Assembly (NCBI RefSeq): GCF_000008665.1
Contig: NC_000917.1
Span: 150,001 to 182,000 of the forward strand
DNA from: Archaeoglobus fulgidus DSM 4304
GTDB lineage: Archaea > Halobacteriota > Archaeoglobi > Archaeoglobales > Archaeoglobaceae
Length of the DNA stretch: 32,000 bases
Direction: 5' to 3'
In this document: piece after piece, positions 3,897 to 22,188 of the stretch
Layout: each line of letters opens with the position of its first letter
Numbering within the stretch: the stretch's first letter is position 1
Translations under genes and position numbers: made by a program
The notes under the pieces: model-generated
Told to the model about the DNA's origin: nothing
Seen by the model: only the letters and a program-made list of their open reading frames with translations
Database searches by the model: none

Positions 3897-4648
3897 AATT
3901 TCACCTCCAGTTCTGGAGAATACCTAACTTCTCCTCTTTCAGCCCTTTTCATAGGTAAAAGGTAGAACACCTTTGGCTCCGTCCCCAAATCTTCCAGCAA
4001 TCTCGTGTGTGCCCCGTCCCTCAACACCTTTGAAATCTCACTGTTAGGGTCATCGAGGTCTCCGAAAATCCTCGCATTCCCTGGACAGCCTCTAACACAT
4101 GCGGGCTTTAGACCTTTGTCAATATACTGCACACAGAATGTGCACTTTTCAACCACTCCTCTTGGTCTCTTGGGCGTGTAAACCAGCCTTCCGTCTTTGG
4201 TTCTGTGATCAATGGGATATCCGTGCCTGTATCCTTCTACGTACTCACCTTCAAATCCTGCCGCCTTGAAACCTTTCTCTACCGCCTTATCCTTATCTTC
4301 CCAGTTAAACTGCCTCACACCATAAGGGCAGGCAGTCATGCAGTACCTGCAGCCAATGCACCTCTCAAAGTCCACCAGCACAACCCCGTCCTCTCTTTTC
4401 CACGTTGCACCGACGGGGCATACCTTAACGCAGGGTGGATTATCGCAATGCATGCAGGGGACTGGGAGGTAAAGTTCAGTCAGATTGGGGTAATCTCCCG
4501 ACGGAGTTTGATGTTCTTTGCTCCCTACGGTCTCAACTCTGTGCCACCAAGTGCCCGGCGGGAGAGAGTTGTGAATTTTGCAAATAACAGCGCAGCTTCT
4601 GCAGCCTATACATCTGTTCAGGTCTATAACCATTCCATACCTCACCAT
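3893..4648 (-). CDS. Four-cluster [4Fe-4S] ferredoxin-type electron-transfer subunit (PsrB/DmsB/NrfC-like)
   Basis: 251 aa starting MVIDLNRCIGCRSCAVIC, with further CxxCxxCxxxCP-type motifs (CMHCDNPPCVKVCP, CIGCRYCMTACP, CTFC...C). Confidence 0.85.
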   Translation of the reverse strand: MVRYGMVIDLNRCIGCRSCAVICKIHNSLPPGTWWHRVETVGSKEHQTPSGDYPNLTELYLPVPCMHCDNPPCVKVCPVGATWKREDGVVLVDFERCIGCRYCMTACPYGVRQFNWEDKDKAVEKGFKAAGFEGEYVEGYRHGYPIDHRTKDGRLVYTPKRPRGVVEKCTFCVQYIDKGLKPACVRGCPGNARIFGDLDDPNSEISKVLRDGAHTRLLEDLGTEPKVFYLLPMKRAERGEVRYSPELEVKL

Positions 4649-4652
4649 GCAC

Positions 4653-7343: not shown

Positions 7344-7401
7344 AAATAGTGTCTTTTTGGCAAGGTCATAAGGTTTTTCCCTAAAATATTAGGAAAAATT
7401 G

Positions 7402-7971
7402 CTACTCAAAATACCCCTTTCCAGCACACATAAAGCAAACCATCCTTCCATCAACCTCAGCGACGTAATCAGATGGCTGAAGCTCCCCGCATTTCTCACA
7501 TTCAACTATTGGCTCCTTTGTCCCACCCACAGGTATCGTCAGCCTTATTTCTCTAACCTCAAAGTATTCAGGCTCAAGGTTCAGAAACTCCTCAGCCAGC
7601 CTTTTCTCCTCCTCTTTGTTCAGCTTTCCAAGCCTGTAGAGGAATTTCTTTATCAGCTCAGACTTCTTGGCCGCCTCTTTCTTAATCGTCACCCTATAGC
7701 CTTCTCTGGTGTCAAACCTCACAATCGCCAAAGCGAGCTTTCCGTAGTCCTTCACAATCAAATTCCTGTTGCCGGGTGTGGTTCCTGCAACGACCTGCAG
7801 AGCATCGGGCAGGCACATTGCTGTCTCGGCAATCCCAACAAGCCCCTTCCCTCTGAAGTTCACACCAAGCTTTTCGTATGCAATTTGGGCCATCTTTATG
7901 CCCAGAGCCACTCCGGGGCTGAGGTGGCTGTGAAGCTTTGCCGCAAACTCAAGCATCTCGTTTCTGTCCAT
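7402..7971 (-). CDS. FmdE-family protein with C-terminal zinc ribbon
   Basis: 189 aa. The motif HSHLSPGVALGIKMA resembles the FmdE motif FHGHxCPGxAxG. The C-terminus has CEKCG...CFMC (CxxC...CxxC). Confidence 0.65.
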   Translation of the reverse strand: MDRNEMLEFAAKLHSHLSPGVALGIKMAQIAYEKLGVNFRGKGLVGIAETAMCLPDALQVVAGTTPGNRNLIVKDYGKLALAIVRFDTREGYRVTIKKEAAKKSELIKKFLYRLGKLNKEEEKRLAEEFLNLEPEYFEVREIRLTIPVGGTKEPIVECEKCGELQPSDYVAEVDGRMVCFMCAGKGYFE

Positions 7972-8093
7972 GGACTCTTAAAAACTCATTAGCTTTAAAT
8001 TATTTTTGAACGGTGTTAAGTTGCCTAATTCGATTATTTTTAATCATGTAAAAACACCGTTAAATTTAAATACAGCGTTTGGTTTGAAAAATC

Positions 8094-9376
8094 ATGGAAA
8101 TTGTGTATTGGGAAGAGCTGGGAAAGAGACTGGGAAGTTTCGAGGTGAAGAAGGATAAGGTCAGCTACAGGATTGCTCCCTTCACGCAGTGGAAGGTTCT
8201 CGTCGCAGATGAGAGGCGTGAGGTTGAGAAGGGGAAGCCTGAGCTTATAAGGCTGAGAGTGGCAGGATTCCTCAGAACACAATCGTTGCTCCGCTCTCAA
8301 TCGCCCCCCATGCGACGGGCACAACAGTTGACGTTGTTGAGGAAAAGCCGAGCAGAGTTGAGGAGGAGAAGAAGATAACTCACGCAGTCTTCCTGCCCGC
8401 TGAAGATGGAGTTGTGGAGGAAGGAGATATCGTTGGCATACTGAAGGTTTTCTTTGTCAGAACCGGGGCAATTGGAAAGAGACTGGGATTCAAGGCTGGA
8501 GACATAAGGATAAGGGAGGAGATAGTTCAGGCGAACCTGACGTGGAAGGAAGATGGAGAGATAAGGAGGGAGAGAATAAAGACGAGGTTTTTCGGCTACT
8601 TCAGGAGCCATGTTGCCGAGTGGGAGCCGGTGATAGCTGCAGAATCTGTTGATGTTGAGAGGGGTGAGGTTGCGAGAATAAAGATAAAGGAGATAACGCT
8701 GCCTGAATACACCGTCATAACGCCTCTCTTCATCAGGAGGCATGCCTTGGGCTCTTTAATTGATGTTGTTCAGCAGGGAAAGAGGAGGAAGGTTGAGGAG
8801 AAGAAGAGAATTGGCGAGGCAATTTTCCTGCCCGCAAGAAGCGGGAGAGTTGAGAAGGGAGACCTGCTGGGTGTGATTAATGTTTACTACATAGCAACAG
8901 AGAACTTCAGCGTTGGCAGAAGGGAAAAGGATGAGGTTCTTGCAAAGGTTGTTGATGAGAGGGGAAGAAAGGAGTTCAGAATCAAGCCCTTCGCCTACAG
9001 GAGGAAGACCATAGCGAGATGGGAGCCCATTGTTGCGGCAGAGAACCGAAAGGTCAGGAAGGGGGAGGTTGAGGAAATTGCGATAGAACCAATTAGCCTT
9101 GAGGAGAACACCATTGTCTATCCCCTCTACGTGATGAGAAACGCCTTTGGAAGTGTGGTTGATGTTGTTGAGGAAAGGCCGAGAAGAGTCGAGGAAAGAA
9201 GGGAGATTATAAAGGCAGTCTTCCTGCCAGTCTTCGACGGAGAAATAAGGAAGGGGCAGCTGCTTGGAGTTATGAACGTTTATAGCATTGAGGTTCAGCC
9301 CTACGAGGTGATATGGCGGTGGCTTGAGGAGTGGCAGGGAGAGTTCAGGAGATTGTTTGCAGAGGTGGTTGGATGA
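8094..9376 (+). pseudogene. Protein built from three tandem ~125-145-aa repeats, split by a frameshift near 8265
   Basis: ORFs 8094..8378 and 8414..9376 lie in different frames. The second frame is open from about 8243 and reads IPQNTIVAPLSIAPHATGTTVDVVEEKPSRVEEEKKITHAVFLPAEDGVVEEGDIVGILKVFFV. That completes a first copy of the unit seen twice more downstream: WEP(V/I)(I/V)AAE..V.(R/K)GEV..I.I..I.L.E.T(V/I)..PL....A.GS..DVV....R.VEE...I..A(I/V)FLP...G.(V/I).KG.LLGV.NVY.I. Confidence 0.6.
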
Positions 9377-10074
9377 GGGCGGTTGTGGTTCTCAGGGATG
9401 AAATAGAGCCAAGCTTTGATGCAGAGGAGATACATCTGCTGGTTCTGGAGAATGGCACAGGGGGAAGGGCGATTTCAGAGAAGGGAGAAATGAGGGCGAT
9501 GGCCAGAGACAAGATTAGGGCGATAAGGAGAGCAGAGAAGCTCTTTGAAAGATTTGAAGAATTCTACAACGTTTCGGGGCTGAGCATAGCCTTCGACAGA
9601 TTTGAGGATGAGCTAATCCACGCTGTTGAGTCGCTGGGGGCAGAGGTTGTTTACTTCTTCACCTCAATGCCCCTACCTGAAAGGCTGCTGTCTGAAAACG
9701 TCACTCTGGTTTTTCCGAGGGGAGGGCTTAGCTTCAACAAGGCTCTTTACGTCCACTCCTCCAGCACACCAAACACTGCATGGCTTGAAAGGGCAAAGGA
9801 GCTTTTCATTCTGGCAATAGTCCAGCCAACGATGCCTCCTGAAGCGTCATCGAGGAAGTTCAGGGAGGAGTTTGAGAGGATGGAGAGGGAAACAGAGGAG
9901 CTCTCATCTCATCTTAAGGCTGAAAGAGCTGTTATCAGGGGAAACATAGTTGAAGATACGCTGAGGTATTCAGAAAAGCACGGTGCAGACACCATATTCC
10001 TCAACAGGGGGCTGGGGAAGGAGAACATTGAAAAGATTGTGGAGAGGGCGAAGGCGAGTGTTGTGGTTGTTTAA
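9373..10074 (+). CDS. Hypothetical protein; the C-terminal half is universal-stress-protein (USP)-like
   Basis: ATG 9373 overlaps the stop of the upstream gene (ATGA). The tracked start at 9331 would lie inside that gene. The C-terminal part (...IVEDTLRYSEKHGADTIFLNRGLGKENIEKIVERAKASVVVV) fits the USP C-terminal pattern. The N-terminal half is only weakly similar. Confidence 0.45.
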   Translation: MRAVVVLRDEIEPSFDAEEIHLLVLENGTGGRAISEKGEMRAMARDKIRAIRRAEKLFERFEEFYNVSGLSIAFDRFEDELIHAVESLGAEVVYFFTSMPLPERLLSENVTLVFPRGGLSFNKALYVHSSSTPNTAWLERAKELFILAIVQPTMPPEASSRKFREEFERMERETEELSSHLKAERAVIRGNIVEDTLRYSEKHGADTIFLNRGLGKENIEKIVERAKASVVVV

Positions 10075-10087
10075 TTTTTATTTTATT

Positions 10088-10993
10088 TCATGCAGTCTTC
10101 GTTTTAACGAGCTTAACCAGCCCCTCAACCTCATCCAAAAACCAGCGCTCGAATTCAGGTCTTTTGACAGCCCTTGCTATATCTTCTTCCAGCTTAAGAA
10201 CTTTTGAGACCTCCAACCATTTTTCCCTTCTGTAAGCTATGATTTCTCCGTCATCAAAGGCTTCAAGAGCTTTTTCGGTCTCCTCCTCACTTCTGAACTT
10301 TAAGCTTGTGTATATGGCCACTCTATCCGAAACGTCACCTCTGAAGACGTAAACGCTGACGATTTTGCCGTTGATATAGCCCATGAAGTGGTCAGTGGCT
10401 TTATCAAACCCCATGGACATGAACTTCTTTTTGACGTGTTCGGGGAGGTCGTCAGTCAAACATCCACAAAGGGCCTTCAGCTTCCCTGTCACAAGCTCCC
10501 TTTCGAATCTTCTGAAGAGTTCAGCTGGAAAGCCCACCACGACCTCCTCGCTGCTGTAACCTCCGAGAACCCTCGCCCCCTCGCACAGAAAGGAGACGTT
10601 GGGCTCCCCCTCTTTGATAACATCCGCCGTTGCCTCACCGCAAACCGCTCTGCTACCGCTAAACCTTGCTACCAGTAAATCTCCAAAAACCTGCCTGAAA
10701 GCTCTTGAAATCTCCATCACCTTTTCGGGGGTAGCTATGACCAGCACGACATCGTAATCTCCCTTTTCATTGTAGGGCTCGATGAGGATGCCCTGAGCCT
10801 CAAATCCCTTCAGAGGCTCAAGAAAAAGGGAAACCTCTGCTCCAGCACAGTTGAAGGCCTTTGCAATTACCCTCCTGTTTGTCGCCTCTCTCACTGCGGA
10901 GCAGAACCTGTCCATGACTTCTCCATCCTCGGTTTCAAGCAGCTTCACTCCAACAGGGCTGTATCTGAGCTGAAAATACCTCCTGAAGCTCAA
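10088..10993 (-). CDS. DUF169-like protein with ~80-aa C-terminal extension
   Basis: 301 aa. The N-terminal ~215 aa (YSPVGVKLL..., Cys-containing core) resemble DUF169/COG2043 proteins from memory. The TTG start overlaps the SepCysS stop (TTGA) and is preceded by GGAGGTGGA. Confidence 0.5.
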   Translation of the reverse strand: MSFRRYFQLRYSPVGVKLLETEDGEVMDRFCSAVREATNRRVIAKAFNCAGAEVSLFLEPLKGFEAQGILIEPYNEKGDYDVVLVIATPEKVMEISRAFRQVFGDLLVARFSGSRAVCGEATADVIKEGEPNVSFLCEGARVLGGYSSEEVVVGFPAELFRRFERELVTGKLKALCGCLTDDLPEHVKKKFMSMGFDKATDHFMGYINGKIVSVYVFRGDVSDRVAIYTSLKFRSEEETEKALEAFDDGEIIAYRREKWLEVSKVLKLEEDIARAVKRPEFERWFLDEVEGLVKLVKTKTA

Positions 10994-12162
10994 TCTTCCA
11001 CCTCCAGGCCATATTTCTCGGCAATCTCCTTGAAGGCCTCAGCAACCCTCTCAACCTCCTCCCAGCTCAGGCCGTAAACGTTGAGCTTAACGTTCCTCGT
11101 CATTCCCGGCTGCACACCAAAAATTCCCCTCTCCTTAAGCTCGTGATAGAGGAAGTATCCCTTCCGCCTGTGCTTTTTAGCTATTAAGTTAAAGGACGGA
11201 GTTTCGAAGTTCATGAGCGTGTGGTTCTTCGGCCTCTCCCCCAGAAGCATAACACCCTCAATCTTTTCCATCTCCTCAACAAACCACCTTGCCTTCTCAA
11301 CCTCCTCCTTCCATCTCTTCACCCTCTCCTTTACTACTGGAAAGGAGGCCATAAGGGTTACAAGGGGAAGGCCGTAAACTGGAGAGCAGCCGAAAAGGGC
11401 AACCTCCTTCTTGGTGAAAGCCCTGCCGCTCCAGTTTCCCCTCACTTCAGAAACCCTGAAAACCCTTTCAGCGAACTCAAAAGTTGTTGCGAGAATTCCG
11501 ATGGGTGCTGTTGCGGCCCAGCTTTTGTGCCCGCTTGCAACAATAAAGTCGCATCCCGTTTCCCTTCCACTCACCTCCATAATCCCTGAGGTGTAGGCTG
11601 TGTTCAAAATAAGCGGAATCCCGTAATCCCTGCATATTTCCGCAACCTTCTTAGCATCTGCCAGATTCCCGTATTTGTAGTCGGCGTGGGTTAGCAGTGC
11701 AACGGCGGGATAATCTCCGGTCTCCTCCTTAACCTTCTCGAAAACATCCGTATAACTCTCAGCCTCTATCCTGAACTCAGGATAGCCCGTGTTGGGAACC
11801 TCGTAAACTCTCAGGCCATTGAGTTCTGCTGCAATGTAGGTAGTGTAGTGGGCGAGGGAGTCCACCACCAAAGCCCCCTTAAACCCGCTCATCGCCACGA
11901 ACTTCGCATGCCTCGCCCCAGCGGTGAACCTCACTTCATCCATACCGAGAAACTCCGCAACCTCTTCCTTGAACCTCTTGACTGGCGGTTTGTCCAGCAG
12001 GTCAACTCTGCCCTCAAGGCAGATATCACACATGCTGTAGCCATCCCCCCACTCTAAAAGCACCTTCCTCGCCTCTTCAGTCAGAATTCCTCCTCTTTGA
12101 ATGGGATGAACGTTAATCATTCCCTTTGATGGTCTCAGCAGTTCCATAGGCTTACTTAACAT
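10990..12162 (-). CDS. pscS: O-phosphoseryl-tRNA:Cys-tRNA synthase (SepCysS) paralog, PLP-dependent
   Basis: Strong resemblance to archaeal SepCysS. Shared motifs include LLEWGDGYSMCDIC (two Cys), GARHAKF, AHYTTY, the PLP-Lys motif ASGHKSWAA, the third Cys in LFGCS, and MASFPVVKERVKRWKEEVEKARWF. The start may instead be the internal ATG at 12147 (MELLRPSKGMINVHP), which gives an N-terminal length closer to the canonical enzyme. Confidence 0.85.
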   Translation of the reverse strand: MLSKPMELLRPSKGMINVHPIQRGGILTEEARKVLLEWGDGYSMCDICLEGRVDLLDKPPVKRFKEEVAEFLGMDEVRFTAGARHAKFVAMSGFKGALVVDSLAHYTTYIAAELNGLRVYEVPNTGYPEFRIEAESYTDVFEKVKEETGDYPAVALLTHADYKYGNLADAKKVAEICRDYGIPLILNTAYTSGIMEVSGRETGCDFIVASGHKSWAATAPIGILATTFEFAERVFRVSEVRGNWSGRAFTKKEVALFGCSPVYGLPLVTLMASFPVVKERVKRWKEEVEKARWFVEEMEKIEGVMLLGERPKNHTLMNFETPSFNLIAKKHRRKGYFLYHELKERGIFGVQPGMTRNVKLNVYGLSWEEVERVAEAFKEIAEKYGLEVED

Positions 12163-12170
12163 TGTTAAGT
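12154..12170. promoter_or_regulatory. Perfect 17-bp palindrome ACTTAACAtTGTTAAGT at the 5' end of the SepCysS paralog
   Basis: The palindrome centre coincides with the first ATG (12162) and lies 15 nt upstream of the alternative ATG (12147). Confidence 0.6.
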
Positions 12171-12173
12171 TTT

Positions 12174-13214
12174 TTAAGTTTTATCCCGAAGCAGTTTCCT
12201 TCCGATGTTCAGACAGTCCAAGTAAAAGTTTCCTGAGGGGGAAAATTCGAAATCAATTTCGGAGCACATGCAGACGCACGCCGGATTCTTTGTAAACCTG
12301 AACTCCTCAAGCAGGTTGAAATCCGGCATTGGAATGACAAGGGGATAGAAGCCAATAACTTCCTTGCACCTCCTGAAACCCTCGGCAGCAGGGATATAAA
12401 TTGCCTCATCTGCGAGCTCAAAGACCGCCTCAATCTGGGCGTAGGAGGCGAAAATTCCCGGGATGAAGAGGTAAAGCTGGCTGTAGTATGTTTTTGCTGA
12501 AGGAAAAACTTTCTTCTCTGCGCTGAGGTCTTCCAGCTCTTTAAAGCTGATTTGGTGGGAGTTGCGTTTGTAGGTCTCTCCGTCGTATCCAAGCTTTTCC
12601 CTTAGCAGCCTGCCATTCTTCTCTCTCAGAACAAAGAGGGTGTCGAAGATTCTGCCGAAGCTCTCACGATTTAGGTGCAAAAGGGAGTGATGAACGAAGT
12701 CGGCGAGAAAATCGGAAATATCTGTCGTGCGGTTTTTTATCCCTGACCTTTCGGCGATACTGGCGTGGAGATTGAAGGCTGGCTCGTCGCTGCCACAAAG
12801 CTTTATGTCCGCAATGCACTGCCTTTCGACGAAGTCTTCAGCAACTAAGTACTTTCTCACCTCCCATCCCCTTTTCCTTCTTGCAAACTTTGGCATCACA
12901 AGGCTGTACTTGAATGGATTTCTGGTCGTGAAGCCGTCACACAGATACGTGAGGTCAAAACGATCAAGGTCGTATGATCTGCAGAGAACCTCGGCAACGA
13001 TATTTTCGAAGTGTAAGCCAAAAAACTGCCTCCACATACCCCCTCCACTGAAATCAAAGCTGTAATCGTCAACGTCAAAGCCAAAGGTTTTCAAAAAATA
13101 GCTCCGCGCCCTGTAACCACACCTCTCCCTCGCTCTGTACTCCTTCCTCAGGTCATCATAGCTGTTAACGTAGGGCAGAGAAAAATCAAACGAAGATGAA
13201 GTTGTCACCGCCAA
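12174..13214 (-). CDS. Hypothetical 346-aa protein, no confident family assignment
   Basis: A long ORF co-oriented with the sulfur cluster. Its start overlaps the upstream gene by 29 nt. It has a weak PD-(D/E)xK-like pattern ([14 protein letters not shown]) and a C-terminal Cys cluster (CVCMC...C). Confidence 0.5.
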
Positions 13215-13575
13215 GAACCTCTGTCAGCCCGCCGACCTTGTCCACCCATTCCGGTAGCTCATCCTCTCTGAGACCGAAAAGCTCCATGCTGCCGGAGCAC
13301 GCAATGATTCGCATCCGTCCGAACGACTTTCCGAGATTCACAAGTTGCTCCAGCTCTCTCAAAATACCTCTTTTGATGCCGCTCTCAATTGCCTGTCTTT
13401 CCTCATCTCCATCGAAAACCTTCTCTCCTCTGCATATATTTCTCAGAGCCCAGTAGGTGAGAAAAACCTGCACTTCCTCGCCCATTGATGCGAGAACCGA
13501 TGCTATGCTGAATGCATGGTAAATTCTGTCCCACTGTCCGCTGTGGACTATGATTCCGTTAATTCTGTCAGACAT
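13186..13575 (-). CDS. DsrE/DsrF-like sulfur-relay family protein (COG2210-type)
   Basis: [25 protein letters not shown]...[12 protein letters not shown] shows a DsrE-fold pattern with a conserved Cys. I prefer ATG 13575 over the tracked GTG 13584 because a TATA-like box and the palindrome lie directly upstream. Confidence 0.7.
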
Positions 13576-13576
13576 A

Positions 13577-13591
13577 ATGAACACTGTTAAT
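13577..13591. promoter_or_regulatory. Degenerate copy of the same palindrome (atGAACAcTGTTAAt), 2-16 nt upstream of the dsrE-like ATG at 13575
   Basis: The AACAnTGTT core is conserved, and 11 of 14 arm positions match the other two sites. The position relative to the ATG and a TATA-like A/T box is the same as at 16363. Confidence 0.45.
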
Positions 13592-13609
13592 TTCTGAATA
13601 AAAGCTTTA

Positions 13610-13798
13610 TCAGAGCAACCTTCTCGTTCCGCTCTTCAACTGCTCCTGCCTTCTCATCCACCCCGCCTTCCACTTCTGGTAGCAGCCTCTGCTGCAGAAG
13701 GTTACAGGGTGGTCAACGCAGCAGGTTTTGACAACAATCGGGTCCCTTGCGATTTTACCGCAGACATCACAGCGATGCTTTGCCGTACTCTTGTCCAG
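13610..13798 (-). CDS. TRASH / zf-FCS-type metal-binding domain with no canonical start codon; probably the C-terminal part of the upstream HTH protein
   Basis: This is not in the ORF track. The minus-strand frame reads ...FELDKSTAKHRCDVCGKIARDPIVVKTCCVDHPVTFCSRGCYQKWKAGWMRRQEQLKSGTRRLL and stops at 13610-13612. The pattern CxxC-x21-CxxxC matches the TRASH signature C-X2-C-X19-22-C-X3-C. The frame is open back to 13900 but has no ATG, GTG or TTG ahead of the domain. Confidence 0.55.
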   Translation of the reverse strand: MDKSTAKHRCDVCGKIARDPIVVKTCCVDHPVTFCSRGCYQKWKAGWMRRQEQLKSGTRRLL

Positions 13799-13799
13799 C

Positions 13800-14138
13800 T
13801 CAAACGGAATACATCTCTTCCTCGATGAGCCCCTCCTCTCTGAGAATCTCGCAAACTCTGCAGAGGTAATCCACCTCGTCTTCGATGGTAATTCTTCCTG
13901 CTACGAGGTCATCCACGAGCTCTCTTACAATTCTCTTCGCCCCATCGGATTTCTTTATGATGTCCAGCCCCCTCTGTCCCCTTTTGCTCTTGAGGTACTG
14001 CGAAACTGCTGCCTGTGTCAACCCGAGCAAATCTGCAACATCCTTTACCCTGTAACCTCTATCTATTAGCTCAAGCGCAACCTTCGCCCTCAGGGCGGGG
14101 AGTACGTATTTCACCATCATCACGCAGTGCGGTTTCAT
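13800..14138 (-). CDS. Small HTH transcriptional regulator (COG2522-like)
   Basis: 112 aa with a helix-turn-helix segment (VKDVADLLGLTQAAVSQYLKSKRG). The start lies 3 nt after the iscU stop. It is embedded in the sulfur/Fe-S operon. Confidence 0.7.
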   Translation of the reverse strand: MKPHCVMMVKYVLPALRAKVALELIDRGYRVKDVADLLGLTQAAVSQYLKSKRGQRGLDIIKKSDGAKRIVRELVDDLVAGRITIEDEVDYLCRVCEILREEGLIEEEMYSV

Positions 14139-14141
14139 GGC

Positions 14142-14603
14142 TCAAGCCTCACAATACTCTCCGTGGTCGTCCATCTCACCCTTCTCCATCTTCTCAAGTT
14201 CCTTTTCCAGACCTAACTCTTTTATCTTATCAATTTTTCCATTTTTTCTAAAGTAGTCAACTATTGCCCTCCTCAGCGCATCTGCGGCCAAGTTGGAGCA
14301 GTGCATTTTCTGCTTCGGCAAACCGCCAAGGGCTTCGGCAACAGCATCTCTTGTAATTTTCAGAGCTTCCTCTATAGTTTTCCCCTTCGCCATCTCAGTG
14401 GCCATGCTGCTGGTTGCAATGGCAGCAGCGCAGCCAAAGGTCTGGAACTTGATATCCTCAATTCTGTTGTCCTTCACTTTAATGTAAATGGTCATCAAAT
14501 CCCCGCAAACTGGATTGCCGACAGTTCCTACACCATCAGCATCCTCAATTTTTCCAACATTCCTCGGATTCTGGAAGTGGTCGAAAACCTTATCACTATA
14601 CAT
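14142..14603 (-). CDS. iscU: IscU/NifU-type Fe-S cluster scaffold with acidic/Lys-rich C-terminal tail
   Basis: MYSDKVFDHFQNPRNVG...GNPVCGDLM...FGCAAAIATSS...MHCSNLA carries the three scaffold Cys. ATG 14603 is preceded by GGAGGTGA. The tracked start at 14612 is a GTG. Confidence 0.9.
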   Translation of the reverse strand: MYSDKVFDHFQNPRNVGKIEDADGVGTVGNPVCGDLMTIYIKVKDNRIEDIKFQTFGCAAAIATSSMATEMAKGKTIEEALKITRDAVAEALGGLPKQKMHCSNLAADALRRAIVDYFRKNGKIDKIKELGLEKELEKMEKGEMDDHGEYCEA

Positions 14604-14608
14604 AGCCC

Positions 14609-15757
14609 TCACCTCCTGTAGAGAGGAGACATGCTCCTCAGCCTCTCAATCACGCCCGGCAGCACCTCAAGCAGCCTGTCAACATCTTCGTCAGTGTTGT
14701 ATCTGCCCAGCGTCAAAAGCAGAGTGCCGTGCGCCTCCTCATGCTTCAGCCCACACGCCATGAGAACATGGCTTGGCTGCAAGGTTTTTGAGCTGCACGC
14801 CGAGCCGGTTGAAGCCTGAATTCCCGCCATGTCAAGGCTCAAAACGATTGACTCTCCCTCAATGTAGCTGAATCTCACGTTTACATTGTTGGGCAGCCTT
14901 TTTTCAGGATGGCCGTTTAGGTAGCTTTCCTCAATTTTCAGAACGTTATCGATTATCCTATCTCTCAACCTTCTGAGCCTCCCAGCCTCCTCTCCCCACT
15001 CCTTTGCGGTGATTTCAGCGGCTTTACCAAATCCAACTATCGCAGGAACGTTTTCACTACCACTCCTGAGCCCTTTTTCCTGCCCACCTCCGAGAATTAT
15101 CGGCTGCAACCTCACTCCCTGCCTTACCCAAAGCGCCCCCACTCCTTTGGGGCCGTAAATGTCGTTGCTTGAAATAGTCAGCATATCAGCACCGATCTTC
15201 TCAACATCCACCTCAATTTGCCCGAGAGAGGCTGTAGCATCAACGTGCAGAGCTGCTCTACCGTTAATTATTTCTGAAATCTCCTTTATGGGCTGAATCG
15301 TTCCAATTTCGTTGTTTGCATGCTGAACAGAAACAAGAATCGTGTCTTCCCTGATTTTCTCCTCAATAAATTCAAGGTCGACGGTGCCGTATTTGTCCAC
15401 TGGGATGAATTCAACCTCAAATCCCTGCTTCTGAAGATACTTTGCCGGATTTATGACGGACATGTGCTCAATTGATGAAACGAGAACGTGCTTACCCTTT
15501 CTGGCGTTTCTCATCGCATATCCAATGAGAGCGAGGTTGTTGGACTCCGTGGCACCTGAGGTGAAAACGATGTCCCCGCCACCACCATTTATCAGCTCCG
15601 AAATCTTCCCCCTTGCCTCCTCAATCACCTCTCTTGCTTTAAAGCCGTAGGAGTGGACTGAGGAAGGATTTCCGAAGTGCTCGGTCATGTAGGGAAGCAT
15701 TGCTTCAACAACCCTCTCATCCACAGGCTTTGTGGAGGCGTAGTCAAAGTAGGGCAT
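14609..15757 (-). CDS. iscS: IscS/NifS-like class V aminotransferase-fold protein in which the PLP-binding Lys is replaced by Asp
   Basis: From [16 protein letters not shown]... (ATG 15757, preceded by GAGGTGGTGG) the protein is 382 aa. The Cys loop GSACSS is present. The canonical S-x-H-K-x-x-G-P-K-G motif reads [10 protein letters not shown]. The tracked upstream start (15823) would overlap the preceding gene. Confidence 0.9.
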
Positions 15758-15767
15758 TTCCACCACC

Positions 15768-16127
15768 TCAGAAATAGAGCACACCATCCGCCTCAAGAAC
15801 GAGCTGGTTGAGCGTTGCAGCACCTACAATCTTGACACCATCAACAATCTCTCCCTTATCAATCCCAAGGAGTTCGGAGCTTCTGTCGCAAACCATCATC
15901 TCAACCCCGCTTTCCCTTGCCTGTTTCATTAACTCACTCAGCGGCGGAAAGTTTCCCATCTTAATTTTCTCAGCATTATCCTTTTTAACAACTGTTACAC
16001 CCTTGATAACAAAGTAAATGATTGCATCATCTCCCATGGCCTTGGCGGTCATTGCGAGGACGAAGGGAGCGTAGAGCCTTTCGGGAGTGTCGATACCGCT
16101 CGTCTGAACGTAAAGCAGCTTCGCCAT
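15768..16127 (-). CDS. DsrE-family sulfur-relay protein
   Basis: 119 aa. [25 protein letters not shown]...MMVCDRS fits the DsrE fold. GGAGGTGA lies upstream, and the gene abuts the tusA-like stop. Confidence 0.75.
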
Positions 16128-16361
16128 CTACCTCACCTCCTTTACAATTTTTACAACAAACCTCAAAACCCCATCCTCAAGCTTTTCAAACTCGACAAGC
16201 TCCTGACCGAGCTTTTTAACCAAAACTGGGATGTCCGATTCTGCAGCAGGGTCGTCTGCAAGAATTTCTATAATTTCCCCAACCTCTGACTCTTCCATTG
16301 CCTTCCTCGCCCTGAATACGGGTTCGGGGCAGTAGAGGCCGATACAGTCAACCTGTTTCAT
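16128..16361 (-). CDS. tusA: TusA/SirA-like sulfur carrier
   Basis: 77 aa with the diagnostic CPxP motif (DCIGLYCPEPV). It is the first gene of the minus-strand cluster. Confidence 0.8.
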   Translation of the reverse strand: MKQVDCIGLYCPEPVFRARKAMEESEVGEIIEILADDPAAESDIPVLVKKLGQELVEFEKLEDGVLRFVVKIVKEVR

Positions 16362-16362
16362 A

Positions 16363-16379
16363 ACTTAACATTGTTAAGG
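16363..16379. promoter_or_regulatory. Palindromic operator candidate ACTTAACAtTGTTAAGg, between a TATA-like box (16384-16393) and the tusA ATG
   Basis: A perfect 15-bp palindrome, CTTAACA-T-TGTTAAG. The identical 16-mer recurs at 12154-12169. Confidence 0.6.
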
Positions 16380-16725
16380 TAACTATTTAAAAGTTTCGGG
16401 AAAAAAAATAGTTTCCACATAGGGAGTCAAAATGAAAAATAATTACCTGCCACGAGAGGATGATCACCAAAGCAAGCCCTTTAATAAATCCAGGTAACTC
16501 GGCAGGCTGGATGAAAATGTTGATAAAGTAGGATTTCAGATTTTAGGACAATACCTTCTTCTGGGAAGCGTATTTAAGACAATAGTTGCAGATAAAACGA
16601 TTGATTTTGGAGATGAAACGTATCGTCAGCTTATGAAACGTTCTGAACCATCTGGCAGCTTCAATTTCAGACGTTTTAACGGGCAAGACCTATTGCCTTT
16701 CAGGTTAAAGCAGTTATGAGGTGAA

Positions 16726-17094
16726 ATGGATTGGAAGAAGATTAGCATAGTGCTGGTGCTGGTGGCTGGGCAGGGCTCTATGTTGCGACGGCAATACCAT
16801 GGGGAATGATGAGGTACGGAGGATACGGTTACATACCCATGATGGGCGGAAATGGCATGGGCGGAGGTTACGGAATGGGTGGTGAAATACGGGTACAGAT
16901 ATGGCTATGATTACAACAACACGCCACAGCAGCCAGTGCAGCAAGGCTACTACGTAACGTACCACTGGCACTGCCCGGATGATGTGGCACTGGTGAGTGG
17001 GCACAGTTACATATCATACCTCTCTTTTCTCAAATTTTTTAAGCAAAGCAGCATTCGCGCTCCGTGCACAAGCTTTCTGGAATGTAGCTCATAA
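16726..17094 (+). pseudogene. Signal-anchored Gly/Tyr/Met-rich small protein, broken by two frameshifts
   Basis: GAGGTGA plus ATG 16726 gives MDWKKISIVLVLVAG, then nonsense and a stop at 16807-16809. The -1 frame continues AGLYVATAIPWGMMRYGGYGYIPMMGGNGMGGGYGMGG. The original frame resumes as KYGYRYGYDYNNTPQQPVQQGYYVTYHWHCPDD... (tracked ORF 16852..17094). The breaks are at about 16768-16770 (G run) and about 16878-16885. Confidence 0.5.
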
Positions 17095-17214
17095 ATCTGT
17101 CTGACCTGGCAACTAAGGCTAAGGCGAAAGATGCCGGTGTTATGCCGTTTGTGAAATGGGTAAGAATTGGATGCAAATTCCTCAGCGTTACAAATCTTAC
17201 GAGAAGCGGTATCA

Positions 17215-17769
17215 TCAGCCGAGTTCCTTCAGATAGGCTATGATATCGTTCAAGTCCTCATCGCTCATCTGCCACCTTGGCATGCACCAGTCGAGGGTTT
17301 CGTTATCATGCTCCCCCTTTGTGATTGCAATTCTGATCTCCTCGTCACTCATCTCCTCTTCAGTTAAGGCGGAGTATCTTATGTCTGGAGCCTTTTCATT
17401 GCACATCATCGGCACAAGCCCTCCCCTTCCATCCCTGCCATGGCAGTTCACGCAGCTTCCCCCATGCATCACCAGCCATTGAGGACCACCTGTAAAGGGG
17501 ATTCTCTCTCCCTTCTCGTTAATTCCCGTGAAGTAAATTTTTTCTCCATTTGAACTGAACTCAGCAGGACCCTGACAGCAGCCCGGTGGGTAGTAGCGCT
17601 CATCACTGTAGCCCATCATCGGGTTGTAGCCACCCATTGGGTAGCCACCGTAGCCCATCATAGGCATGTAGCCGTAGGGGGTTAAGAAGTTCAGCAGGAA
17701 GAACGCCACAACCACGACTGCAATTATCGCAACAACAATTTCGGACTTTTCCATGGTATTTATCAGCAT
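17215..17769 (-). CDS. Membrane-anchored monohaem c-type cytochrome with a Met/Gly/Tyr-rich linker
   Basis: One CxxCH motif (GGSCVNCHG), an N-terminal TM helix (IVVAIIAVVVVAFFLL), then PYGYMPMMGYGGYPMGGYNPMMGY. The start could be ATG 17754 (MEKSEIVV), directly downstream of an A/T-rich box. Confidence 0.7.
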   Translation of the reverse strand: MLINTMEKSEIVVAIIAVVVVAFFLLNFLTPYGYMPMMGYGGYPMGGYNPMMGYSDERYYPPGCCQGPAEFSSNGEKIYFTGINEKGERIPFTGGPQWLVMHGGSCVNCHGRDGRGGLVPMMCNEKAPDIRYSALTEEEMSDEEIRIAITKGEHDNETLDWCMPRWQMSDEDLNDIIAYLKELG

Positions 17770-17904
17770 AAAATTTTAAAAATTTTTTTACTCGGTTCCA
17801 ACGATATTAAGGAAACTTAGAATAAAAAGTTTGGAATCTTTTGTTGCTAGACTAATGCTTAGATCGAGTGGTTTTGAAAAGTTCAGCTCTCTATACCACA
17901 ACCT

Positions 17905-18440
17905 CTACCTCAGCAACCTCATCGAGTTCATAACGGCAATCAGCGTAACCCCGACATCCGCAAACACAGCCTCCCACATCGTCGCCATCCCCATTGCGCC
18001 GAGGCTTATGAAGAATCCTTTTACAGCTAAGGCGAGGACTATGTTCTCCCATACTACCTTCTGTGTCCTCTTTGCCAGCCTAATTGCTCTGGCAACCTTC
18101 GACGGCCTGTCGTCCATGATCACGACATCCACCACCTCGATGGCTGCACTTCTCATCGCCCCCATGGAGATGCCCACATCAGCCCCCGCTATAACTGGGG
18201 CATCGTTGATGCCATCTCCAACAAAAGCAAAGCTTTCTCCTTAGCCTTAATCTCCTCTATAACCCTCACCTTGTCTTCCGGCAGCAGTTCTGCGAAGTAT
18301 TCGATGCCCAGCTCTGATGCGATGCTTTCGGCAATCCCCCTGCTATCTCCGCCCAGTAGCAGTTTTTCCACCCGCATCCGGTGTAGCAGTAGGGAATCCA
18401 CCGAACAGACAGCCAACGTTAACAGAGCTATACAGAGCAT
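17905..18440 (-). pseudogene. C-terminal remnant of a heavy-metal P1B-type ATPase (Zn/Cd-like), N-terminally truncated and frameshifted
   Basis: ORF 18189..18440 reads ...LLLGGDSRGIAESIASELGIEYFAELLPEDKVRVIEEIKAKEK. The -1 frame continues SFAFVGDGINDAPVIAGADVGISMG... into ORF 17905..18177, ending ...VFADVGVTLIAVMNSMRLLR. This covers the P-type hinge motif GDGINDAP and the last two TM helices only. The frameshift is at the T3/A3 run at 18234-18236. Confidence 0.8.
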
Positions 18441-18503
18441 AGCTCATACATGTGTTCACTAATATCAAATGTTTAAAAATCTTTCGCCAATTGACACCAA
18501 AAT

Positions 18504-18830
18504 ATGCAATCAGTAAAGGATATTTTTAAGGAGCTTAAATCTTTGAGAGGAACGACTCGAAATTAAAGTTTTGGGAATTGCAACCTACATCCAGACATCA
18601 TCTGTGAGAAGAACTGCTAAAATCCTTTCAGAGTTGCATCCTGTTTCTAAATCATCAGTACATCGCTGGATAAAGAAGTTTGAGGAAAAATTGCCCATCT
18701 CAGCGGAGAAAAAAGGAATCTGATAGCGATGGATGAGACAGTGGTTAAGGCGAACAGGAAGCATTACTACGTCTATGCTGCGATAGGTGTGGAGTGGAAT
18801 GAGCTCATTCTTATGAGGGTCGCTGCCACA
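18504..18830 (+). pseudogene. Degenerate N-terminal fragment of an IS6-family (IS240-type DDE) transposase
   Basis: Pieced together across three frames: MQSVKDIFKELKSLRG / ERLEIKVLGIATYIQTSSVRRTAKILSELHPVSKSSVHRWIKKFEEKLPISAEKK / NLIAMDETVVKANRKHYYVYAAIGVEWNELILMRV. This is an HTH followed by the first catalytic Asp region (DETxxK). Similarity ends near 18830. Confidence 0.7.
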
Positions 18831-19001
18831 ATTTCTGGAATCTGTTCTGTAAGCTGTTTATGCTTTACTACAATCGATCGAGGTGGTTTTTGTGTTATGT
18901 GGACACATTCAAATGAGAAATCGAAATGGTATAATGGTATATGGATGTAGCAAAGCTACATCTTATCATGACAATTTATCACTAAGCTTTCAAAGATGAA
19001 A

Positions 19002-19016
19002 GAAAAACTTATTTTG
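19002..19016. repeat. Left copy of the 15-bp target-site duplication GAAAAACTTATTTTG
   Basis: Identical to 19980-19994 and directly abuts the left IS end. Confidence 0.85.
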
Positions 19017-19979
19017 TGTAGTATCCCAAAATTATTTCACAACCCTAAACCCAACTCTTGTGAGAAAACTAACGAACAAAAAGATCAAGTGGATCATCAA
19101 ACAGCTCGAAAAGGGAACACCAGTAAAGGAAATAGCTGCTGTGATGAGAGTTACACCAAGAAGAATCTACCAGCTTAAAAAGCAATACGAGGAAACTGGC
19201 CAGATCCCAGAACTAAAACAAGCAGGAAGAAAGCCCAAACCAATTGACGAGAAAACAGAGCAAATCATCCTGCAAGCCTACAAAAAATACAGGGTAAGTC
19301 CAGTACCTCTTTAAAAGCTGATAGAAAGAAATTACAGAATCCACATCCCCCACAACACCATATACAAAGTTTTACTCAAACACGGTTTGGTGGAGGAGAA
19401 CATGAACAAGAAGAAAAGGAGGAAGTGGGTTCGCTATGAAAGGACTCATTCAATGTCTTTATGGCAGGGAGACTGGAAAAAGCTTGGAGAGAAATGGATT
19501 ATAGCCTTCATGGACGATGCTTCCCGCTTCATCACCTGCTATGGAGTATTTGACTCTGCTACTACTGAGAACACAATCAAGGTGTTCAAGAAAGGATTCG
19601 CTGAGTATGGCATTCCGGATGAAATCCTCACAGACCATGGTACCCAATTTGTTGCAGCGAAAAGCAGAGAGAAGGCTAGGCACAGATTCAGAGAGTTTTT
19701 GGCCGAGAATGGAGTAAGGCACATTCTTGCGAGAGTGAACCATCCACAAACGAATGGGAAGATAGAGAGGTTCTTTGGGCTGATGGAGCAGAAGCTCCAT
19801 CTGTTTGATTCTTTGGATGAGTTCATTTATTGGTACAATTACGTTAAGCCTCACATGAGCCTGAATTTTGATGAACTGGAGACTCCTTACCAAGCTTTTC
19901 TGAGGAAGCTACCTGCTGAAAGGGTGTTTGAGTACGGGAGGTGGTTGTTTGAGGAGTGAAATTATTTCGGGATATCACA
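19017..19979 (+). mobile_element. Complete 963-bp insertion sequence (rve/DDE integrase type, IS481-like; the size matches the A. fulgidus element named ISA0963)
   Basis: Imperfect terminal inverted repeats: TGTAGTATCCCAAAATTATTTCAC at 19017-19040, versus the reverse complement of 19957-19979, TGTGATATCCCGAAATAATTTCAC. The element is flanked by a perfect 15-bp direct repeat. Confidence 0.85.
19060..19959 (+). pseudogene. IS transposase (HTH + rve integrase core) interrupted by one in-frame TAA at 19312-19314
   Basis: ORFs 19060..19314 and 19387..19959 are in the same frame. Read-through gives ...YRVSPVPL*KLIERNYRIHIPHNTIYKVLLKHGLVEENMNKKKRRKW.... The DDE triad candidates are in FMDDASRF, LTDHGTQF and HPQTNGKIERFF. 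Confidence 0.8.
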
Positions 19980-20565: not shown

Positions 20566-22188
20566 ATGAGGTACAACCTGACCATAAAGAAGACCCTCTT
20601 TTTCCCCCTGCACGCCTTTCCGAACAAGGAGATAGTCTACAGGGACATCAACAGATACACCTACAGGAGATTCTACGAAAGGTTGCAGAGAGTTGCCAGC
20701 TCCCTTGAAAATATTGGGGCTAGGGGAGCGAAGATTGCCTTCATAGACTGGAACACGCACCAGTATCTGGAAGGGATGTTCGCCATTCCAATGATGGGCA
20801 GCATTCTGCACTGCGTAAACCTAAGACTGGCTCCAGAAGAGATAGTTTACACGATGCGCTACGTCGAGGACGACTTTGTTGTTATCAGGGACGAGTTTCT
20901 GCCCTTGGCCGAGAAGCTCGCTCCCCATGTGCCATCAGTGAAGGGCTGGATAGTGACGGGCGATGATGTGGACAAAGTCGAGACAAGCCTCAAGCCGGTT
21001 TACATCTGGGAGGATCTTGTTAAGGAGGGTTCGAGCTACGATTTTCCTGAGCTTGACGAGCATGAAACGGCGGTGGTTTACTTCACCTCAGGCACCACAG
21101 GATTGCCTAAGGCTGTCCACTTCTCCCACAGGCAGGTGGTGATGCAGTGCATAATCAACGGCCTTGCCCTTTCAGCCAATGAATCCCCAGCGAGGATGAG
21201 CTCTGCAGACACCATAATGCACATCCCGCCCTTCTTCCACGGAATGGGCTGGACTTTCCCGTATCTGGCAACAATGCTTGGAATGAAGCAGGTTCTGCCG
21301 GGAAGATATGAGCCTCAGGTAATGCTGGATTTGATAAAGAATGAGGGCGTTACCTTTGCAGGCGGGGTGCCGGTGTTCCTTAAAATGCTCATTGAGCATC
21401 CAGAGGCTGAGAAGTACAAGGATGCTCTGTCCAAGTTCAAGTTTGTGTGCGATGGTGAGCACCCGCAGAGAGTGCTTTTTGAGAGAGCTAAGCAGCTGGG
21501 CATAAAGATGATTGAAGCTTTTGGCATGTCTGAAGGAGTGGGGTTTACCTTTGCCGTTCTAAAGGACCACATGCTGGACTGGGACTGGGAGAGGCAGGTG
21601 GAGTATCTCAACAAGGCAGGCTTGCCCGCTCCCTTCGTTGAGGTCAGGATTGTTGACGATGAGGGCAAAGAGGTGCCGAGGGACTTCCAGACGATGGGTG
21701 AGATTCTCATCAGAAGTCCCGGCCTGACGGAGGGATACTGGAAGAATCCGGAGAAGACTGCTGAATCTTGGGATGAGGAAGGATGGTTCCACACCGGCGA
21801 TTTGGGAGTGTGGGATGAGGAGGGCTACATCCTGATTCTCGACAGGGCTAAGGACGTCATAAAGAGTGGAGGCGAGTGGATAAGCTCCGTAAGGCTTGAG
21901 GGATACATTCTGGAGCATCCTGCTGTCAGCGAGGCTGCAGTAGTTGCTGCGAGGAGCGAGAAGTGGAGTGAGAGGCCCATAGCCGTCGTTGTGCCAAAGC
22001 CCGGGATGAGCGTGACAGAGAAGGAGATAATAGACTTCCTGATGAAGAACTTCGTTGAGACGGGAAAGATGGCGAAGTGGTGGCTGCCTGACAGGGTTTT
22101 CATTGTGGATGAGATGCCGAGAACCACTGTGGGCAAGATAAACAAGAGGGCGATAAGGGAGAAGTACAAGGACCTCGTACTCCCCTGA
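20566..22188 (+). CDS. Medium/long-chain acyl-CoA synthetase (AMP-forming)
   Basis: 540 aa with the AMP-binding signature YFTSGTTGLPKAV, also GYWKNPEKT, WFHTGDLG and the C-terminal catalytic Lys region TTVGKINKR. GGGGTGGTGG lies before the ATG. Confidence 0.9.
   Translation: MRYNLTIKKTLFFPLHAFPNKEIVYRDINRYTYRRFYERLQRVASSLENIGARGAKIAFIDWNTHQYLEGMFAIPMMGSILHCVNLRLAPEEIVYTMRYVEDDFVVIRDEFLPLAEKLAPHVPSVKGWIVTGDDVDKVETSLKPVYIWEDLVKEGSSYDFPELDEHETAVVYFTSGTTGLPKAVHFSHRQVVMQCIINGLALSANESPARMSSADTIMHIPPFFHGMGWTFPYLATMLGMKQVLPGRYEPQVMLDLIKNEGVTFAGGVPVFLKMLIEHPEAEKYKDALSKFKFVCDGEHPQRVLFERAKQLGIKMIEAFGMSEGVGFTFAVLKDHMLDWDWERQVEYLNKAGLPAPFVEVRIVDDEGKEVPRDFQTMGEILIRSPGLTEGYWKNPEKTAESWDEEGWFHTGDLGVWDEEGYILILDRAKDVIKSGGEWISSVRLEGYILEHPAVSEAAVVAARSEKWSERPIAVVVPKPGMSVTEKEIIDFLMKNFVETGKMAKWWLPDRVFIVDEMPRTTVGKINKRAIREKYKDLVLP

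Follow-up and report, generated by a model that had tools for sequence, protein, structure and literature searches.

How sulfur reaches the scaffold IscU when the partner IscS lacks the lysine of a cysteine desulfurase, and which molecule donates sulfur in vivo to tRNA-dependent cysteine synthesis, are two questions raised by a single locus of Archaeoglobus fulgidus DSM 4304. We analyzed a stretch of 32,000 nucleotides (nt) of its genome (NC_000917.1, positions 150,001 to 182,000; hereafter the window), in which the minus-strand array AF_0180 to AF_0188 comprises nine canonical open reading frames (ORFs) within 10088-16361 and one noncanonical ORF of 66 codons (Table 1). The array encodes a TusA-family carrier, two DsrE-family proteins (DsrE_a and DsrE_b), an IscS with Asp in place of the catalytic Lys (IscS1), IscU, a helix-turn-helix (HTH) protein, a 346-residue protein, a second SepCysS (SepCysS2) and a DUF169 protein. 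Every one of these genes has been annotated before, and the Asp-type IscS is already known. An earlier note, made from the letters of this DNA, had proposed one ten-gene, desulfurase-independent route supplying sulfur to IscS-IscU and possibly to SepCysS. We find substantial comparative support for such a supply of both, and none for a single ten-gene pathway. With modest confidence, we lean towards a composite sulfur-assimilation island, in which a relay would feed the Asp-type IscS-IscU, DUF169 would serve SepCysS2, and the HTH protein would govern both as one regulon.

Families were assigned with Pfam and NCBIfam profiles, with equivalog cutoffs applied. The comparison set consists of the window and 135 loci (L001-L135, 1.39 Mb), which are partly redundant and include many contigs without taxonomy. 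Loci were annotated by simple ORF calling (ATG, GTG, TTG) and purpose-built hidden Markov models, and IscS was told apart from SepCysS by single-sequence phmmer scores.

A conserved archaeal TusA-(DsrE)-IscS-IscU operon

IscS1 carries Asp at the site of the pyridoxal phosphate (PLP)-binding lysine, at the position of the SxHK motif, and retains the loop Cys, Cys321 (STGSACSS). The protein aligns over its full length with PDB 4EB5 (3.7e-228), the class V aminotransferase-fold structure of its crystallised paralogue IscS2, to which it is 87% identical, and it scores below the equivalog cutoffs of TIGR03402 and TIGR02006. IscS1 belongs to the desulfurase fold, lacks the PLP Lys and, by analogy with IscS2, for which the loss of activity has been shown (PMC8918507), is presumably not a functional desulfurase. 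The same study posed the sulfur source of the inactive A. fulgidus paralogue as an open question and suggested sulfide (PMC8918507). Methanosarcina acetivorans IscS1 (at MA0807/MA0808) likewise lacks the Lys and clusters with four genes of unknown function (PMC7585200), and Cys78 of DsrE is persulfurated in vitro by sulfide alone (PMC3397948).

The substitution is widespread. Asp occupies the Lys site in 118 of the 120 closest IscS1 homologue clusters, ranked by similarity alone (61-100% identity), and the single Lys among them belongs to an engineered D199K variant; named sources include Archaeoglobus, Ferroglobus, Geoglobus, Hadarchaea and Bathyarchaeales. Among the locus copies of IscS, 84/85 have the Asp and 85/85 the loop Cys. 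Of the 65 Asp-type IscS loci whose upstream sequence extends for 900 nt or more, 54 have a same-strand TusA gene at most 1.5 kb upstream. TusA and DsrE are both upstream in 35 of these 65, in the order TusA-DsrE-IscS in 33, and IscU is downstream in 65/72. Dereplication by single linkage at 70% identity leaves TusA in 17 of 20 informative clusters and TusA plus DsrE in 10. TusA-(DsrE)-IscS(Asp)-IscU is a widespread conserved operon across many archaeal lineages, so the placement of TusA and DsrE directly upstream of a Lys-less IscS and IscU, noticed earlier in this one sequence, is no local accident.

The residues expected of sulfur carriers are equally constant. TusA reaches 81.3 bits with PF01206 (cutoff 28.6) and remains below the cutoff of the Escherichia coli TusA equivalog (51.6 vs 78); its Cys11 (CPxP) is invariant in 75/75 homologues from related loci. 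DsrE_a and DsrE_b are DsrE-superfamily members (PF02635, PF13686) with one conserved Cys each, and both score below the cutoff of 210 of the DsrE2 equivalog NF047629 (48.9 and 32.6 bits, respectively). The single conserved Cys80 of DsrE_a is invariant in 46/46. IscU passes TIGR03419 (209.8 vs 187.9), and its cluster ligands C36, C61 and C105 are invariant in 42/42.

An alternative is that TusA and DsrE do not feed IscS-IscU and the operon serves tRNA thiolation (2-thiouridine or 4-thiouridine), molybdopterin or thiamine thiolation, with IscS(Asp)-IscU supplying a cluster or scaffold, or with TusA modulating IscS-IscU as in E. coli. There, sulfur passes from IscS to TusA and on to TusBCD, which is homologous to DsrEFH, and TusA and IscU compete for IscS (PMC13066941, PMC3397948); ThiI, ThiF, ThiS and PP-loop genes are also frequent neighbours of the archaeal loci. 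However, an Asp-type IscS cannot make persulfide from cysteine (PMC8918507), so TusA could accept sulfur from it only if that sulfur came from elsewhere, and no thiolation enzyme is found inside the TusA-(DsrE)-IscS-IscU core in 54 loci. We consider this alternative quite improbable, and retain the relay towards IscS-IscU.

SepCysS2 is paired with a long-form DUF169 protein

SepCysS2 scores 511.7 bits with TIGR02539 (cutoff 365) and is an exact match to UniProt SepCysS 2. Aligned to Methanocaldococcus jannaschii SepCysS (PDB 3WKR), it keeps the PLP Lys and three Cys (CDIC, ASGHKS and the third Cys), confirming what the earlier note had read from the sequence. A. fulgidus SepCysS1 (2E7I) matches it at 8.7e-108; we take the in vitro activity work and the 2E7I structure to pertain to this paralogue, SepCysS1.

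The neighbouring DUF169 protein (PF02596, 82.7 bits vs cutoff 27) is of a rare long form, with 25 homologue clusters among 5.8 billion proteins and about 16 members among 623 DUF169-like matches in 1.84 billion representatives. In 10 of 11 lineages examined (window/L042, L001, L002, L043, L044/45, L046/47, L048, L049, L050 and L135), its gene immediately follows that of SepCysS, mostly with a 4-nt overlap, and the translational coupling suggested by the junction in the window thus holds for a conserved, usually overlapping pair. The exception, L134, encodes the most distant long-form DUF169 in a cluster of phosphoadenosine phosphosulfate reductase, Sat, TusA, sulfite reductase, TusA and ThiI, and SepCysS is absent. 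In a neighbour-joining tree, the DUF169-linked SepCysS proteins form one clade. Members of the same clade without DUF169 are overlapped by ThiI (L003 9175-12051) or ThiF (L006 9174-11877), and partner swapping among sulfur-activating proteins seems typical of this clade. The SepCysS genes of L003 and L006 are also flanked by ThiF or a PP-loop ATPase.

The surroundings of SepCysS-DUF169 are rich in Sir, Sat, Apr-like, TauE, PALP, ThiS, ThiF, TusA and DsrE_b-type genes. Homologues of DsrE_b occur in sulfate-assimilation clusters adjoining SepCysS-DUF169 in L046, L048 and L049; the Cys of its CSGSME motif is kept in 5/5 and aligns with Cys80 of DsrE_a. Long-form DUF169 has six Cys, all invariant. 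Four of them (C31, C49, C118 and C137) and R141 are kept in more than 92% of 125 short relatives, and the CxC motif (C176xC178) and the C-terminal domain are confined to the long form. An AlphaFold2 (AF2) model of the protein is confident (pLDDT 87) except in the CxC loop. Elsewhere, a short-form DUF169 (242 aa; L049 1837-2565) with CGEA and FxCxGxR motifs in common with the long form adjoins arginyl-tRNA synthetase and aRF1, another translation-related neighbourhood for this family.

DUF169 might instead be no sulfur donor and act as an adaptor or chaperone of SepCysS2 where SepCysE is absent, bridging it to SepRS or tRNA, or as a thiol-disulfide partner that resets the SepCysS Cys pair. Archaeoglobi are without SepCysE, and DUF169 occasionally adjoins SepRS (Mukai et al. 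2022, PMC8762117). The C-terminal domain of the AF2 model, taken alone, weakly resembles a YbjN / type III secretion chaperone fold (E 5e-3, TMt about 0.5), and thioredoxin or glutaredoxin genes precede SepCysS-DUF169 in L050 and L135. Yet about 140 relatives of DUF169 keep the four Cys, short forms with no relation to SepCysS among them, and L134 places a long form with TusA, sulfite reductase and ThiI and no SepCysS. Because the Cys4 site is family-wide and because of this L134 context, we favour a role for DUF169 in general sulfur or metal chemistry and regard an adaptor or thiol-disulfide function as unlikely.

Three predicted promoters share one operator

Upstream of TusA, DsrE_b and SepCysS2, the interval from TATA box to start codon contains a palindrome, TTAAC-N3-GTTAA (Table 1), in the classic position of an archaeal repressor site. 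The copy before SepCysS2 stands 8 nt upstream of the ATG, and the same position is filled before SepCysS in L001 and L042 to L045. Against shuffles that preserve mononucleotide content only, the core has 28 perfect sites in the comparison set where 1.8 are expected, the 13-mer operator has 12 occurrences (0.15 expected), and the 11-mer TTAACANTGTT, which matches exactly at three loci, is found 10 times with one mismatch allowed on both strands (1.6 expected). Most of the core palindromes (23/28) fall within −15 to +60 nt of an ORF start.

The palindrome recurs before genes of both modules, that is, of module A (TusA-DsrE-IscS-IscU) and of the SepCysS2-DUF169 module. It precedes SepCysS2 (L001, L042 to L045), TauE-SepCysS (L046 to L049) and the module A TusA (L054 and L112, with a degenerate site in L048), as well as sulfite reductase (L046/47, L054), PALP, a PP-loop ATPase and FeoB, and it occurs in the FmdE/DUF22 divergent region. 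These sites predict that the array is three promoter units with one operator in common, and not one ten-gene unit; this agrees with the two or three transcription units that the junctions had suggested.

Downstream of DUF169 in the window (2197-10074), the genes of a DUF22 protein and of an approximately 240-aa protein without a family form a pair that is syntenic with L042 to L045. After this pair, FmdE, a molybdopterin oxidoreductase, a 4Fe-4S protein, NrfD and a chaperone are encoded in one operon. The FmdE/DUF22 intergenic palindromes are perfect in L043 and L044 and degenerate in the window (8007-8019, 8053-8063), and because of them the regulon may extend to a Psr/Phs-like sulfur reductase.

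A candidate regulator with three conserved cysteines

The 112-aa HTH protein encoded after IscU has three Cys (C5, C93 and C96) that are invariant in 18/18 homologues, and all 12 family members examined give weak Pfam HTH_3 matches. A profile search of PDB with this protein returned generic Xre/ArsR HTH matches only, with no solved relative, and the homology test against SurR, a double winged-HTH protein, was negative. Its homologues directly follow SepCysS in seven loci of methanogen-type metagenome-assembled genomes and follow IscU in L054; six of these seven methanogen-type loci carry TTAACG[GC]CGTTAA. Overall, the palindrome is present in 9/15 loci with the HTH gene vs 10/121 loci without it, and this co-occurrence makes the HTH protein a candidate binder of the operator. 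Six of the loci (L026, L027, L029, L031, L034 and L037; e.g., L027 2828-3131) share the order SepCysS, three-Cys HTH and a divergent gene for a 90-aa winged-HTH protein, whose promoter carries TTAACG[GC]CGTTAA, and have IscU upstream; this 90-aa gene is absent from Archaeoglobi.

The earlier note had described an HTH-TRASH regulator as one protein. We find two overlapping ORFs, of which the second, the 66-codon ORF, fits C-x2-C-x21-C-x3-C by eye (CDVC...x21...CSRGC) and so looks like the metal-binding pattern of TRASH domains, C-x2-C-x19-22-C-x3-C. It has no match in PHROGs and only chance-level matches in Pfam (E ≤1). Its counterparts in L042 (98% identity) and L054 (83% identity) start with an ATG overlapping the HTH stop, a pattern that points to a real conserved coding sequence. 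In DSM 4304 the first codon of the ORF (13808-13810) is ATT. Because the ORF is otherwise intact, it would be either translated noncanonically or by coupling, or recently silenced. Of the ten genes originally counted, nine are therefore canonical ORFs, and the tenth is this conserved ORF without a canonical start here.

Linkage of the two modules and a proposed mechanism

Two blocks, each widely conserved, could be neighbours by function or by chance. In L048 both are contiguous on one strand (SepCysS-DUF169-ThiI-TusA-IscS(Asp)-IscU), and in L011 SepCysS, the HTH gene, TusA-IscS-IscU and DsrE lie within 12 kb. Five further DUF169/Asp-type IscS pairs match in source and contig size (43513, 37310, 40727, 20945 and 31646). 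In total, of the 13 long-form DUF169 clusters whose contigs reach 20 kb or more, 7 have an Asp-type IscS on the same contig, and where contigs are long enough, about half of the lineages have the two blocks adjacent or on one contig of at most 44 kb. By this measure the modules appear linked more often than chance would give. Because they have one operator in common and are frequently adjacent or on the same contig, we consider the two blocks to be functionally tied. The expectation that the genes would stay linked in related genomes is thus borne out within each module, and often for both modules on the same contig, and fails for adjacency in close relatives.

A single pathway in which all ten products act together, including the 346-aa protein, would account for the common strand and the tight junctions. 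Three separate predicted promoters contradict it, and the whole array is conserved at no other locus examined. The 346-aa protein has 6 homologue clusters, all from Archaeoglobaceae, and its Geoglobus acetivorans homologue stands alone between unrelated genes, for which reasons we exclude it as a component, contrary to the role first suggested for it. It has no match in Pfam, NCBIfam, PADLOC or PHROGs, and its AF2 model has a pLDDT of 44.6. The GC skew at 12001-13000, over this gene, is −0.04 vs −0.18 to −0.27 in neighbouring minus-strand genes, consistent with a foreign or recently inserted gene. We regard it as a probable lineage-specific insertion and no module component, and we consider the ten-gene pathway highly unlikely.

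In the mechanism that we propose for the composite island, unit 1 would comprise TusA-DsrE-IscS1(Asp)-IscU-HTH-(TRASH), and units 2 and 3 would be DsrE_b(-insertion) and SepCysS2-DUF169, each with a TATA box followed by the palindromic operator over the expected transcription start. IscS1, unable to desulfurate cysteine, would serve IscU as a Cys-donating partner. TusA and DsrE, with one invariant Cys each, would pass on sulfane sulfur for the assembly of [2Fe-2S] clusters, with sulfide, polysulfide or thiosulfate as its ultimate source and either the IscS loop Cys or IscU as its recipient. This flow, from TusA/DsrE to IscS-IscU, would be the reverse of that from IscS to TusA in E. coli. Units 2 and 3 together would form a second sulfur-delivery module, in which the Cys4(+CxC) DUF169 acts as a dedicated metal- or persulfide-carrying partner of SepCysS2 and supplies or regenerates sulfur for the conversion of Sep-tRNACys to Cys-tRNACys. 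The three-Cys Xre-type HTH protein would be an operator-binding repressor that senses sulfur or Fe-S status and unites the modules as one regulon.

Several observations weigh against this composite island. The blocks lie apart in L001 (SepCysS 94% identical), where the 6 kb upstream of the 346-aa gene encode ACR3- and ArsP-type (arsenic-type) permeases, and in L054 (IscS 79% identical), where TusA-DsrE-IscS-IscU-HTH-TRASH has no SepCysS within 5 kb. Such loci favour a loose juxtaposition, in which independent housekeeping modules are neighbours by chance and the palindrome marks a broad sulfur, redox or metal regulon. No IscS-IscU lies within 10 kb of DUF169 in L043, L044, L046, L049, L050 and L135, and the palindrome also precedes FeoB, DUF22/FmdE and PP-loop genes. 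However, the contiguity in L048 is independent, with a different gene order, more than half of the informative DUF169 clusters share a contig with an Asp-type IscS, and the TATA-operator-ATG layout is identical at all three promoters of the array; a chance arrangement seems improbable to us.

Other points on the same side concern the parts of the composite island. Neither TusA nor DsrE is upstream in 10/65 Asp-type IscS loci, and the TusA-linkage counts cover Asp-type IscS loci alone; a metagenome scan in which one search pattern (NDIYGPKG) selects Asp variants had contributed 80 loci. The IscS2 locus (L053 955-2578) has a DsrE copy without its first ~25 residues and no TusA, and for these reasons looks like a partial duplicate of AF_0185 to AF_0187. 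The same-contig calls were drawn from matches in tabulated source and size, not from sequence. The Cys4 site of DUF169 could be a structural zinc site. The operator could belong to another regulator, such as the 90-aa winged-HTH protein beside the methanogen-type palindromes, which we judge the weaker candidate because its gene is absent from the operator-bearing Archaeoglobi loci. The steps of the mechanism all derive from gene order, conserved Cys and promoter motifs.

A more far-reaching proposal would have three things hold at once: in a large anaerobic archaeal clade, a dedicated TusA/DsrE persulfide relay takes the place of cysteine desulfuration in feeding Asp-type IscS-IscU; DUF169, as a carrier of persulfide or of an Fe-S cluster, is the long-sought partner that delivers sulfur to SepCysS under physiological conditions; and both are controlled by a three-Cys Xre-type protein, not recognised before, that senses sulfur or Fe-S status and binds TTAAC-N3-GTTAA. 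We put this combination forward tentatively, as possible and on balance doubtful.

Layout of the array and its surroundings

All genes of the array are on the minus strand with tight or overlapping junctions, as first described, and the nine canonical ORFs are listed with the operators and predicted promoters in Table 1. TusA and DsrE_a abut (0 nt), DsrE_a and IscS1 are separated by about 10 nt, IscS1 and IscU overlap by 4 nt, and the gap between IscU and the HTH gene is 3 nt. A 216-nt gap after the HTH gene contains the 66-codon ORF. DsrE_b and the 346-aa gene overlap by 29 nt, the gap from the latter to SepCysS2 is 11 nt, and SepCysS2 and DUF169 are joined by a TTGA overlap.

Table 1. Genes, operators and predicted promoters of the A. 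fulgidus array, in window coordinates.
Feature	Coordinates	Strand	Evidence and remarks
TusA-family sulfur carrier AF_0188, first gene of module A	16128..16361	-	PF01206 4.6e-23; exact match O30050
DsrE_a AF_0187, DsrE-family, 119 aa	15768..16127	-	PF02635 1.2e-21
IscS1 AF_0186, Asp-type	14609..15757	-	PF00266 6.6e-80
IscU scaffold AF_0185	14142..14612	-	PF01592 2.9e-53; TIGR03419 above cutoff
HTH protein AF_0184, 112 aa, Xre/Cro-type	13800..14138	-	sub-threshold HTH_3/HTH_5 matches only
66-codon Cys-rich TRASH-like ORF	about 13610..13810	-	overlaps HTH stop; first codon ATT
DsrE_b, DsrE/DrsE_2 family, first gene of second unit	13186-13584; 129 aa from ATG 13575	-	PF13686 1.8e-11
346-aa protein, no family	12174..13214	-	no profile match
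SepCysS2 O30056	10990..12162; likely true start ATG 12147 (385-aa form)	-	TIGR02539 1e-153
Long-form DUF169 AF_0180, 301 aa	10088..10993	-	PF02596 4.4e-23
Operator O1	16365..16377		TTAACATTGTTAA; between TATA box TTTTAAATA (16384-16392) and TusA ATG
Predicted promoter P1, TusA	TATA 16392-16384; operator 16377-16365; ATG 16361		TATA TTTTAAATA; operator TTAACAATGTTAA
Operator O2 / predicted promoter P2, DsrE_b	TATA 13603-13597; operator 13590-13578; ATG 13575		TATA TTTTATT; operator TTAACAGTGTTCA, one mismatch
Operator O3 / predicted promoter P3, SepCysS2	TATA-like 12177-12171; operator 12168-12156; ATG 12147		TATA-like TTAAAAA; operator TTAACAATGTTAA

An Rfam search of 9500-17500 gave no RNA family match. 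No tRNA gene was found in a search of the window, and tRNACys is thus unlinked to SepCysS2 here, unlike in clade VII SepCysS loci. A literature search by the locus tags AF0180 to AF0188 and AF0564 returned nothing relevant.

Upstream of the array (17215-19959), a 184-aa cytochrome c-domain protein (PF00034, 1.3e-7) is followed by short ORFs that have no Pfam match but look by eye like a heavy-metal P-type ATPase C-terminus, and by an rve-family integrase fragment at 19387-19959. The array is probably bordered here by a gene disrupted by an insertion sequence. Farther out, at 20566-28828 on the plus strand, three AMP-binding ligases, an acyl-CoA dehydrogenase and a thiolase-like protein form a run of the fatty-acid beta-oxidation type, which is ordinary for A. 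fulgidus and unrelated to the sulfur array.

Significance and comparison with known systems

The locus makes two questions testable in a cultivable and structurally tractable organism with named proteins: the sulfur supply of A. fulgidus IscS-IscU (PMC8918507) and of minimal archaeal Fe-S systems, and the source, in vivo, of the sulfur used in tRNA-dependent cysteine synthesis. The leads are TusA and DsrE as obligate partners of Asp-type IscS, the function-unknown DUF169 as a partner of SepCysS2, and a candidate regulator and operator that would delimit a sulfur-assimilation regulon in Archaeoglobi and related lineages. The regulatory link through the common operator is an addition to the idea first put forward for this DNA. 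The conserved accessory modules and the operator appear undescribed in the searchable literature: we found no description of the archaeal TusA-DsrE-IscU grouping in this sense in the literature searched, and none of a SepCysS-DUF169 pairing in the literature searched by term.

Closest to IscS1 are A. fulgidus IscS2-IscU (PDB 4EB5/4EB7, 4HVK) and the minimal MIS Fe-S system (MisS-MisU). IscS1 has in common with the crystallised paralogue the Asp for Lys and the loop Cys, a ligand of the [2Fe-2S] cluster. A 2026 review presents MIS as consisting of two components and nothing further (PMC13066941), whereas a TusA gene, alone or together with DsrE, precedes IscS in about 83% of the Asp-type loci studied here. 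The locus of the characterised IscS2, unlike that of IscS1, has no TusA and looks like a truncated duplicate, and the origin of the crystallised IscS2-IscU in such a locus may be the reason that accessory proteins were overlooked. The E. coli IscS-TusA-TusBCD-TusE-MnmA relay and the TusA/DsrE(FH)/DsrC relays of sulfur oxidisers use the same families, with a single persulfide-carrying Cys each. In those relays, sulfur starts at an active IscS or rhodanese and flows outward, whereas IscS1 is inactive by analogy; for this reason sulfur here would flow toward IscS-IscU or bypass IscS.

The second module resembles the SepRS-SepCysS(-SepCysE) system, in that SepCysS2 passes the same equivalog model with all catalytic residues kept. 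Its clade differs in being coupled to DUF169, ThiI or ThiF, not to SepCysE/SepCysSn, and in carrying the putative sulfur-regulon operator. Mukai (2017) noted 'a few sulfur metabolism genes' for SepCysS clade VII only. The methanogen sulfide-assimilation factors (COG1900/NIL-ferredoxin and COG2122) and SmsCB address the same problem, the synthesis of cysteine, homocysteine and Fe-S clusters from sulfide without a cysteine desulfurase, but their families differ, and none of those genes is in the array.

For the regulator, the nearest comparison is SurR of Thermococcales, a sulfur-responsive CxxC regulator with a double winged HTH and a site, GTTn3AAC, near the TATA box or transcription start. 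Both are archaeal Cys-containing factors associated with sulfur genes and with a short palindrome that has a 3-nt spacer near the TATA box or start, binding by the HTH protein here being predicted. The latter differs as a 112-aa Xre/Cro-type protein with C5 and C93xxC96, its half-sites are in inverse order (AAC-N3-GTT), and we detected no sequence relationship between the two. SurR is thus best seen as a conceptual analogue of the A. fulgidus protein, and not as a homologue.

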